Source: Candidatus Eiseniibacteriota bacterium (lineage in GTDB: Bacteria; Eisenbacteria; RBG-16-71-46). Taken from it: a DNA stretch of 64,000 nt. Under the pieces are notes generated by a model. It was not told the origin of the DNA and searched no databases. It was given only the letters and a program-made list of their open reading frames with translations. Location of the stretch: the NCBI GenBank assembly GCA_963717505.1, contig OY970342.1, positions 1,408,001-1,472,000 of the forward strand, in the 5' to 3' direction. Below are positions 3,872 through 5,725 of the stretch, in pieces. Within the stretch, counting starts at the first letter, position 1. The number at the start of each line of letters is the position of its first letter. A program made the position numbers and the translations under genes.

Positions 3872-4336
3872 TCAGCTCTTGCTCGCCATCGTCTCCATGT
3901 GTTGCTTCATCTCGGCGTCCGAAACGTCGCGAACGTGGGTGGCGATCGTCCACACGTGGCCGAAGGGATCGGTGAACGTTCCGGATCGATCCCCGTAGAA
4001 CTGATCCTGGAGCGGCTTCATCTCCTTGCCGCCCACCTTGAGCGCTCGCGGATACGCCTCGTTCACGTTGTCGACGTAGATCATCAGGCTGACCGGCGTG
4101 CCGCCGATGGTTTCCGGCCCCAGGTAGTTGAGCGACGGAACTTCATCGGCCAGCATGATGCGCGAGTTGCCAATCTGGATTTCCGCGTGACCGATCGAAC
4201 CGTCGGGCATCGGCATGCGGAACAGCTCGCGCGCGCCGAGTGCTTTCACGTAGTAGTCGAGCGCCTTGGCGGCGTTCTTCACGATGAGATACGGAGTGAT
4301 GCTGTGATAACCGTCGGGAATGGACTTCACGGGCAT
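3872..4336 (-). CDS. VOC/PhnB-like glyoxalase family protein
   Basis: SITPYLIV..AAKALDYY, HAEIQIG, DQFYGDRSGTFTDPFGHVW. Confidence 0.9.
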   Translation of the reverse strand: MPVKSIPDGYHSITPYLIVKNAAKALDYYVKALGARELFRMPMPDGSIGHAEIQIGNSRIMLADEVPSLNYLGPETIGGTPVSLMIYVDNVNEAYPRALKVGGKEMKPLQDQFYGDRSGTFTDPFGHVWTIATHVRDVSDAEMKQHMETMASKS

Positions 4337-4415: not shown

Positions 4416-4877
4416 TCAGCTGGCGCGAGCCAGCCCTTCATCGGGGGTATGCAGCGCCCGCAGACGCTCCCGAACGCGCGCCACGCGCACGGCGCTCACT
4501 GTTTCGACCGCGTAGCGCTCGTCCCATGCAAGGTTACCGCGCAGCCAGACCCGCAACTCGGGAAAGTCCGCCAGCAATGTGTTGGCGGTGCGGCCCTTGA
4601 GTTCGCGAATCACGCTGGCAATGCTCTGCGACGGACGGATTGCCAACAGCACGTGGACATGGTCCGGACCCGCGGCCACCTCGAGCAGCGAATAGCCGCG
4701 GTCCTCGCACACGGTCGTGACCTGGTGGTTGAGCGCGCGCACGTGGCGATCCTTGAGCACCGGTCGTCGCGCTCGCGTACTCCAGGTGACGAGGTAGTGG
4801 AGCTGGCTGCGATACATCGGTTCCCAGCGATGGCTGAGAGTTTCCTGGATCTCGGGAGCCAGCATTCGGCTATTCAT
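4416..4877 (-). CDS. IS200/IS605 TnpA-like (Y1 HUH) protein lacking the catalytic Tyr
   Basis: QLHYLVTWSTRARRPVL, PDHVHVLL (HUH), ELKGRT, WDERYAVETVS; the helix that normally carries YIxxQ reads RLRAL; GAGGAGG RBS before ATG 4877. Confidence 0.8.
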   Translation of the reverse strand: MNSRMLAPEIQETLSHRWEPMYRSQLHYLVTWSTRARRPVLKDRHVRALNHQVTTVCEDRGYSLLEVAAGPDHVHVLLAIRPSQSIASVIRELKGRTANTLLADFPELRVWLRGNLAWDERYAVETVSAVRVARVRERLRALHTPDEGLARAS

Positions 4878-4903
4878 GACGATCTTCCTCCTCACACCCC
4901 GCA

Positions 4904-4920
4904 CCTGAACGTATGTGCAC
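4904..4920 (-). promoter_or_regulatory. Putative LexA (SOS) box upstream of the tnpA-like gene
   Basis: Minus strand GTGCACATACGTTCAGG shares the TGCAC-N4-GTTCA core with the site in the lexA promoter. Confidence 0.65.
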
Positions 4921-4933
4921 CAACGGGTCCTAG

Positions 4934-4954
4934 AAAAAGGGAGCCGAAGCTCCC
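4934..4954 (-). terminator. Rho-independent terminator downstream of lexA
   Basis: Minus strand GGGAGC-TTCG-GCTCCC-TTTTT (UUCG tetraloop plus U tract). Confidence 0.8.
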
Positions 4955-4998
4955 GGTGAAAAACTCGACTGCTTCTTGTTCATCCTGGTTCGTGTTCA

Positions 4999-5034
4999 TC
5001 CGGAGCGCGCCGGCTCGACGGGGCGCGCTCCGGA
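4999..5034. repeat. 13-bp inverted repeat in the lexA 3' region
   Basis: TCCGGAGCGCGCC-N10-GGCGCGCTCCGGA. Confidence 0.7.
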
Positions 5035-5043
5035 CTTCGAACC

Positions 5044-5646
5044 TCAGTTCATCCCGGAGCGAACCAGGCCCCGCACCACTCCCAGAATCCTGAACGAAAC
5101 TCCCTCGCGAACCGGAATCGGGCGATACCTGGCGTTGGCGGGCAACAACTCGATGCCGCCGGGGCCAGGCTTGTAGTACTTGACGGTAGCCTCGTCTTCG
5201 AGCAATGCGACGATCATCTCGCCCGGGCTCGCGGTGTTCTGATGCCGGACGACGACGAAATCGTTCTCGAGGACCCCAGCCTCGATCATGCTGTCGCCGC
5301 GCACGCGAAGCGCGAACAACTCGCCCGAGGTGCCGAACAGCTCGTCGGTCTCCAGATGACCTTCGAACGACTCCTCGGCGAGAGTCGGCTGGCCGGCGGC
5401 GACACGACCGAGAATCGGGATCCCGGTCTGACGTGCTGGGTGGCGCGAGGTCTCGATCCCGCGAGAAATTTTCTCGCTGCGCCGGAGCTTGCCCTCTTTT
5501 TCGAGTCGGTTCAGGTGGTATCGGACGCCGTTGGTCGACGCGATGCCAAACTCCTTGCCGATCTCGCGGATCGTTGGCGGGAAGCCGCGCTGACGGATGA
5601 ACCGCTCGATGAACTGGAGAATCTCCAGCGTGCGCTCGTTCCGCAT
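5044..5646 (-). CDS. lexA: LexA SOS repressor
   Basis: GFPPTIREIG..STNGVRYHL wHTH, GRVAAG cleavage site, VRGDSM catalytic Ser, EATVK catalytic Lys; GGAG RBS before ATG 5646. Confidence 0.96.
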   Translation of the reverse strand: MRNERTLEILQFIERFIRQRGFPPTIREIGKEFGIASTNGVRYHLNRLEKEGKLRRSEKISRGIETSRHPARQTGIPILGRVAAGQPTLAEESFEGHLETDELFGTSGELFALRVRGDSMIEAGVLENDFVVVRHQNTASPGEMIVALLEDEATVKYYKPGPGGIELLPANARYRPIPVREGVSFRILGVVRGLVRSGMN

Positions 5647-5695
5647 ATGGTCGACTCCTTGATTCAAAGGTCCACGTGGGACCCGGCACAGGCGG

Positions 5696-5725
5696 ATACT
5701 AGTGAACACGCGTGCAGGCCGTCAA
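5696..5725 (-). promoter_or_regulatory. lexA promoter with putative LexA box in the spacer
   Basis: Minus strand TTGACG-N18-TAGTAT with CTGCACGCGTGTTCA (5703-5717) between the -35 and -10 hexamers. Confidence 0.72.

Follow-up and report, generated by a model that had tools for sequence, protein, structure and literature searches.

A lexA-linked IS200-type transposase homologue without its catalytic tyrosine, a candidate SOS gene of Candidatus Eisenbacteria

In the genome of a Candidatus Eiseniibacteriota bacterium (assembly GCA_963717505.1), a gene encoding a homologue of the Y1 transposases (TnpA) of IS200/IS605 insertion sequences (ISs) lies directly downstream of lexA, whose product is the master regulator of the bacterial response to DNA damage. 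Both genes are on the minus strand of a 64,000-nt stretch of contig OY970342.1 (positions 1,408,001 to 1,472,000), here called the window, and coordinates refer to the window unless stated otherwise. The protein, here termed Y1-like, has kept the fold and the HUH motif of its relatives and has lost the catalytic Tyr. It is probably a domesticated, transposition-dead Y1/HUH transposase that has become a LexA-repressed member of the SOS regulon, acting as a non-cutting binder of single-stranded DNA (ssDNA), hairpins or forks. The gene thus looks like an undescribed part of the DNA-damage response in one order of uncultured Eisenbacteria; a literature search found no paper on Eisenbacteria together with LexA or the SOS response, and nothing on a LexA-controlled, domesticated IS200/HUH protein with a translesion link.

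The Y1-like gene occupies positions 4416..4877 on the minus strand and encodes 153 aa plus a stop codon. Its open frame spans 4416..4904(-), and the ATG at 4875-4877 is preceded, 6 nt upstream, by the ribosome binding site (RBS) GAGGAGGAAG (4884..4893, minus strand). Profiles, alignments and a structural model agree on the family. The Pfam domain Y1_Tnp covers residues 24-136 (1.9e-23), and the NCBIfam IS200/IS605 transposase model scores 82.8 bits (cut-off 55); the RAYT model NF047646 stays below threshold (39.5 bits vs. a cut-off of 80). The solved structure closest in sequence is that of ISDra2 TnpA (2xm3; phmmer E 1.3e-14). An AlphaFold2 model built from 27 homologues (mean pLDDT 78.9, pTM 0.71) shows the expected order of strands and helices, with a C-terminal helix at residues 129-143. 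With this model, every Foldseek hit from rank 1 to rank 30 is a Y1 transposase or the RAYT of E. coli; ISDra2 again leads (E 6.5e-10, TM 0.66/0.76), and TM values range from 0.66 to 0.78 across IS200/IS605 TnpA structures. PADLOC returned no match for the Y1-like protein or for the small open reading frames (ORFs) described below.

In the phmmer alignment, the segment IQKYIESQH of 2xm3 stands opposite VRERLRALH, placing Arg138 at the position of the catalytic Tyr and Leu142 at that of the metal-ligand Gln. The translation of the gene contains no Tyr C-terminal of Y122, and the N-terminal motif YH(I/L)VW reads YLVTW. The HUH motif is kept as PDHVH, with H73 and H75 present, as are the W..Y strand motif and the C-terminal helix. 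With Arg in place of the nucleophilic Tyr, and without the Gln metal ligand, the protein would have lost the ability to transpose; to the extent that a sequence can tell, the chemistry of transposition is ruled out. The same substitution characterizes the group: among 72 orthologues (the protein itself and 71 from genome contigs), 70 have Arg in place of the Tyr, and H73 (70/72), H75 (72/72), D72 (66/72) and H143 (70/72) are nearly invariant. In canonical relatives aligned with them, this site reads Y(I/L)xxQ, apart from one relative that has F (P0149). Six of the 72, all from one subclade, have a Tyr in the disordered tail, about 10 residues past the helix. In 70 of the 72 orthologues the last residues of this tail, encoded at 4416-4445 (minus strand), are [LWFM]-A-x-A-[SG]; they resemble a docking or degradation tag, perhaps one with an ssrA-type end.

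The preliminary description of this DNA had reported an intact 153-aa Y1 homologue with an RBS, co-oriented downstream of lexA and without tnpB, in which HUH is kept, the catalytic Tyr is lost and YLVTW replaces YH(I/L)VW; the ORF, the Pfam assignment, the genome-wide searches described below, the 2xm3 alignment and the translation bear it out on each of these points.

A word-indexed protein search returned 886 proteins at E≤1e-3 from 1037 candidates; among the 120 matches listed, identity was 65-89% and length 150-180 aa. The clade appears sharply separated from other Y1 proteins, because a library clustered at 50% identity held one full-length representative of the family (239 bits) plus fragments, after which scores dropped to 104 and 91 bits for the next full-length proteins (41 and 34% identity). 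Canonical TnpAs come next in this library, at no more than 37% identity.

The Y1-like gene is a host gene, not an IS. The genome, a single contig of 4.16 Mb with a marker completeness of 86.68%, contains one Y1 domain in a genome-wide profile search, and a genome-wide search for TnpB-type domains found none. Neither IS ends nor repetitive extragenic palindrome (REP)-like repeats flank the gene in this genome; when the three flanking intergenic stretches were compared with the genome by blastn-short, only GC-rich 14-20-mers were recovered, and no repeats. Among 48 genomes of the same GTDB family (this one and 47 others), 40 have exactly one Y1 domain, three have none and five have more.

The 13 closest pairs of orthologues (dS 0.22-0.43) have ratios of non-synonymous to synonymous divergence (dN/dS) of 0.02-0.24, which shows purifying selection. 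Restricting the 2556 pairs to those with 0.05<dS<1.5 leaves 2419, among which dN/dS has a median of 0.30 and does not exceed 0.77. The Y1-like proteins of the 71 related loci are on average 64.7% identical to that of the window, vs. 60.0% for LexA from these loci.

The position next to lexA is fixed. A scan with one genome per species yielded 71 distinct related loci, nearly all from metagenome-assembled genomes (MAGs) labelled Candidatus Eisenbacteria, with a few MAG records labelled otherwise. In all 71, lexA lies directly upstream of the Y1-like gene and is co-oriented with it, with a gap of 89-217 nt. A convergent orthologue of the EamA transporter gene lies downstream in 57 of 71 loci, a count that excludes four further weak EamA matches elsewhere. 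In 69 aligned upstream regions an RBS of the GCAGGAGG type is conserved, and the common layout is a terminator hairpin with a T-run, about 10 nt, a box, about 10 nt, GCAGGAGG, and the start codon.

This box is predicted to be a LexA operator. In the window it reads TGCACATACGTTCA (4906..4919, minus strand) and ends 28 nt before the Y1-like ATG; its counterpart TGCACGCGTGTTCA lies at 5703-5716, in the spacer of the lexA promoter. The sharing of one box by the two genes, noted in the preliminary description, was confirmed when both sites were located, and the comparison across species extends it. In 68 of 71 loci the 130 nt that precede the Y1-like gene contain the pattern TGNAC-N4-GTNCA, usually near -35 and usually as TGCACAT-NN-GTTCA; its consensus there is TGCAC-N4-GTKCA. 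TGCAC-N4-GTGCA precedes lexA in 70 of 70 loci, the remaining contig (L035) ending before the region upstream of lexA. Two of the three loci that fail the strict pattern have boxes with one mismatch; the third (L077) has none, and its protein also has an aberrant C-terminus. Across the 71 loci, the two upstream windows of 130 nt together contain 142 occurrences of the pattern, vs. one in the other 528,542 nt. Within this genome alone the exact 10-base core is not enriched (four occurrences in 4.16 Mb vs. 4.07 expected), and the decisive support for the predicted box is comparative, from the 71 related loci.

A position weight matrix (PWM) built from the 70 lexA-upstream sites was scanned over the genome. 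The highest scores, 27.2 and 24.4, fall in the promoter spacers of two operons, each with an 84-85-aa ORF and a Y-family (IMS) polymerase gene. The site of lexA scores 18.0, one lying 30 nt before a radical-SAM gene 14.3, that in the recA promoter (TTGACG-16-TATCAT) 13.9 and that of the Y1-like gene 13.5; sites scoring 19.7, 19.5 and 14.2 adjoin genes without an evident tie to DNA repair, one encoding an OsmC protein and two without a family match. Since recA and two operons with Y-family polymerases also have this box in their promoters, it is taken as the predicted LexA operator of this genome. It presumably resembles the Fibrobacter-type LexA box, TGCNC-N4-GTGCA. By comparison across species, regulation of the Y1-like gene by LexA is well supported. 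The box-like site before the radical-SAM gene reads TACTGCACACTTGTGCCCGT (locus L092, position 1,875,974 of this genome, G000), and that gene may be a further member of the SOS regulon.

The lexA gene (5044..5646, minus strand; 200 aa plus stop) is recognized by TIGR00498 at 176.5 bits, and profile searches find a winged-helix DNA-binding domain and an S24 peptidase domain. The cleavage site A84-G85 and the S119/K156 dyad are invariant in 26 sequences.

In a survey of 206 genomes of the phylum, the Y1-like gene appears confined to three related GTDB families of Candidatus Eisenbacteria that belong to one order. Matches were found in 80 of the 88 other genomes of its own family (f1), in all ten of a second family (f2; 40-55% identity; the count includes an unpublished genome, G073, outside the fetched loci) and in all three of a third (f3; 30-38%). 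The other 15 families gave weak matches in five genomes, of which that in G003 (locus L088) reads as a canonical TnpA with its Tyr; a second copy in an f1 genome (G083, locus L089) is likewise a canonical TnpA. In the two sister families the gene stands in a longer unit: in nine of nine fetched f2/f3 loci the order is lexA, Y1-like gene, (small ORF), Y-family polymerase, DUF72, all co-oriented, and a homologue of the 84-aa ORF is present in six of the nine. The box precedes the Y1-like gene in six of these nine by the strict pattern and in all nine by eye with one mismatch. The small-ORF/dinB/DUF72 genes of f1 are now found at another place, preceded by a box of their own; in this genome the place is at 2.755 Mb. 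The f2 and f3 proteins have R or K at the Tyr site and have in addition a decayed HUH motif (DRVH, GQVR/TQIR, DRLD or DHVN), and those of f3 stop short of the C-terminal helix. As an outgroup, 12 lexA loci from nine genomes of six other families were compared, a tenth genome having no LexA match. The small ORF and/or the polymerase gene directly follows lexA in 10 of the 12, and a Y1 gene is present in none of the 12, which reach 1.5 kb to each side of lexA. The simplest history would be that an IS200-type element inserted between lexA and the translesion operon in the common ancestor of f1-f3 and was then retained.

These data suggest how the protein may work. DNA damage would stimulate, through RecA, the self-cleavage of LexA, which would derepress the Y1-like gene. 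Probably dimeric, as its relatives are, the protein would bind ssDNA, hairpins or fork-like DNA without cutting, with Arg138 perhaps holding the phosphate that Tyr formerly attacked, and it may have a role in gap or fork processing, possibly together with an SOS Y-family polymerase. We infer binding to ssDNA or hairpins as the most economical consequence of the fold. Passages of a survey of Y1 HuH proteins describe an affinity of IS608 TnpA for fork-like DNA and a presumed binding of this transposase to the beta clamp, DnaN (PMC6006769). Since f2 and f3 proteins at the same lexA-linked position have lost HUH, a function shared by f1-f3 could not need the HUH centre. A non-cutting binder is favoured because of the fold, the affinity of relatives for forks and the beta clamp, this HUH-independent shared function and the ancestral translesion context. 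In a more specific and distinctly more tentative version, the inactive HUH/Y1 transposase, born by IS200 insertion into an ancestral lexA-dinB operon, might guide or restrain a damage-inducible Y-family polymerase at stalled forks, where it would recognize hairpin or fork ssDNA without cutting it.

Several observations weigh against a LexA-repressed, non-cutting binder. The HUH histidines, which a pure binder does not need, are nearly invariant in f1, and could therefore point to residual metal-dependent chemistry. The adjacency to dinB in f2/f3 may merely mark where the IS landed, the polymerase operon of f1 being elsewhere. A sigma-70 scan recognized the lexA promoter and none between the lexA terminator and the Y1-like gene; transcription of the latter may therefore come from an unrecognized promoter or from read-through. 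A -10 element inside the box (TnnGTT) was considered and rejected, since its position 2 is not conserved in the aligned upstream regions. Four public runs were examined out of 17 with small parts of the stretch. One RNA library contains two 151-nt contigs identical to lexA (5293-5580), and over the Y1-like gene there are only diverging pieces of relatives, with no usable cover. Finally, dN/dS reaches 0.77 in distant pairs, probably through saturation of dS in a genome of 68% GC. A complex prediction for LexA with the Y1-like protein gave no answer (score 0.00) and carries no weight either way.

The conservation of HUH bears on the possibility that the f1 protein is still an enzyme, namely a metal-dependent, non-covalent (hydrolytic) nuclease of ssDNA or hairpins that uses HUH and a water molecule in place of Tyr and is switched on by the SOS response. 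That H73, H75, D72 and H143 are kept beyond what the fold requires speaks for such an activity; however, Tyr and the Gln ligand are absent, f2/f3 orthologues at the same lexA-linked position do without HUH, and those of f3 also without the helix. We know of no hydrolytic Y1 enzyme, and none is mentioned in the literature passages covered. A nuclease is doubtful. The protein might instead act on another protein, such as LexA, RecA, the small ORF product, the Y-family polymerase or the beta clamp, for example by tuning LexA cleavage or polymerase access. The adjacency to lexA in 71 of 71 loci is consistent with a partner of this kind, as are the extra Y1-like copies that accompany extra lexA copies in one MAG and the conserved ending of the disordered tail, as expected for a docking or degradation tag. 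The adjacency is, however, also explained by the insertion history, and although the proposed binding of DnaN by IS608 TnpA would offer a precedent, the tail is unlike the clamp-binding consensus quoted in the passages of PMC6006769 covered here. A protein-acting modulator is judged unlikely.

Two further explanations fare much worse. Y1 transposases such as those of IS608 and ISDra2 are dimers with active sites formed in trans, and in principle a subunit without Tyr could thus inactivate a functional partner; the preliminary description had accordingly suggested a dominant-negative inhibitor of IS200/IS605 transposition during SOS. This idea fails because the targets are usually missing from the genomes that carry the gene: with one Y1 domain and no TnpB found in this genome, exactly one Y1 domain in 40 of 48 family genomes, and the nearest canonical TnpAs no more than 37% identical, such a role is very improbable. 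Of the wider proposal of co-option, of which the inhibitor was one form, the data support a domesticated, Tyr-less, single-copy gene under purifying selection, fixed next to lexA behind a LexA-type operator. What the preliminary description had proposed to look for in relatives was found as well: lexA synteny in every locus, Arg at the Tyr site in 70 of 72 orthologues, dN/dS below 1 in the 13 closest pairs, a single copy here and in most of the family, a strict upstream box in 68 of 71 loci and, by Foldseek, a predicted Y1 fold closest to ISDra2. A few copies do look broken (L077, L056/L090, L091), as would be expected of an IS remnant in decay, or of a neutral pseudogene lying near lexA by chance. 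However, the frame is intact in almost all 72, close-pair dN/dS is 0.02-0.24, the protein is better conserved than LexA, and operator and RBS are conserved as well; these data have already refuted that reading, which hardly merits any credence.

The remaining features of the locus lie between and around the two genes. Read along the minus strand, the order is lexA promoter, lexA, terminator, box, RBS, Y1-like gene and a glyoxalase-family gene, beyond which lies the convergent EamA transporter gene. The lexA promoter, TTGACG-18-TAGTAT, occupies 5696..5725 (minus strand). The promoter and terminator scan places an intrinsic terminator after lexA at 4929..4954 (minus strand), GGGAGC-TTCG-GCTCCC followed by TTTTTCT, and an additional GC hairpin precedes it on the same strand, between the end of lexA and the terminator. 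A hairpin with a T-run is kept at the terminator position in most related loci, and in most species (the same place in L008-L078) the stem keeps the sequence GGGAGC/GCTCCC, not merely pairing; it could be a relic of an IS left-end hairpin or a binding site. The GGGAGC-loop-GCTCCC hairpin was also considered as a dispersed repeat and rejected, its nine genome-wide occurrences lying within the range of composition-matched stems (0-43). The glyoxalase/bleomycin-resistance-family gene (3872-4336, minus strand) intervenes between the Y1-like and EamA genes and is peculiar to this genome. Because none of the 71 related loci has a match to it, it is not counted as part of the unit.

Some observations from outside the window or from other genomes concern the same regulon. 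The two polymerase operons of this genome (G000) lie at 921,884-923,386 (L002) and 2,755,410-2,757,000 (L003), behind two LexA-box promoters, TTGATA-17-TATGCT and TGGACA-17-TAGATT, with the box in the spacers. In each, a Y-family polymerase gene comes after a conserved ORF of 84-85 aa. The match of this small ORF to DUF6504 is weak and misses the cut-off (E 5e-4 and 0.016), and homologues of the ORF directly follow lexA in several outgroup genomes; its product may be an undescribed polymerase accessory protein. The polymerase gene of L003 is split (2,755,754-2,756,195), with residues 1-108 of the IMS profile in one frame and 113-147 in the next, which reflects either a frameshifted gene or an assembly error, and a DUF72 gene follows it. 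One MAG (G096) carries three lexA/Y1-like loci (L015, L056/L090 and L091). One of its LexA proteins is just 34% identical to that of the window, and two of its Y1-like copies appear damaged, one by an altered C-terminus and one by a frame break; segmental duplication or a co-binned strain could account for the three loci.

Few domesticated prokaryotic transposases are described, and the known Y1 examples, the RAYTs, keep the catalytic Tyr. In the survey passages covered, all Y1 HuH superfamily sequences are said to share the HuH and Y motifs (PMC6006769). Against this background, a Y1 protein without its nucleophile that has been retained across a whole order under predicted LexA control would be a new participant in the SOS response of a phylum without cultured members. 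The active site can be seen in three states of decay (Tyr lost; HUH lost; helix lost), which together would show, in dated steps, how a selfish gene became one that serves its host in the DNA-damage response. Guidance or restraint of a polymerase, if true, would make the protein a transposase-derived translesion accessory factor and thereby an SOS protein of a new kind. Being small and soluble-looking, the protein could be studied in vitro without culturing the organism.

Compared with known systems, the Y1-like protein is closest to the IS200/IS605 TnpA proteins of ISDra2, IS608 and IS200, with which it shares the Y1_Tnp domain, the fold, HUH, the W..Y strand motif and the C-terminal helix. 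It differs from them by Arg138 in place of the catalytic Tyr and by the missing Gln ligand, and its gene differs in having neither IS ends nor TnpB, in being single-copy at a fixed place and in its predicted LexA operator. SOS translesion cassettes linked to lexA include umuDC, imuA-imuB-dnaE2 and YolD-type small proteins with Y-family polymerases. The Y1-like gene resembles these in its predicted control by LexA and, in the sister families, in lying, together with a small accessory ORF, in the operon of a Y-family polymerase; in this genome, however, the polymerase operons lie elsewhere, and to our knowledge no translesion cassette includes a protein of the Y1/HUH fold. Like RAYT/TnpA-REP proteins, the Y1-like protein is single-copy, vertically inherited and retained by its host. 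RAYTs are flanked by REP repeats, whereas the Y1-like gene has no flanking repeats and its product no catalytic Tyr, a residue that RAYTs keep in a Y---NP context according to the survey passages covered (PMC6006769). Expression of ISCR transposases is promoted by the SOS response, as stated in the part of the source covered (PMC13393415), and in both cases expression of an HUH-type transposase gene would thus be tied to SOS; ISCRs, however, are active mobile elements, whereas the gene described here is an immobile, Tyr-less gene of its host.

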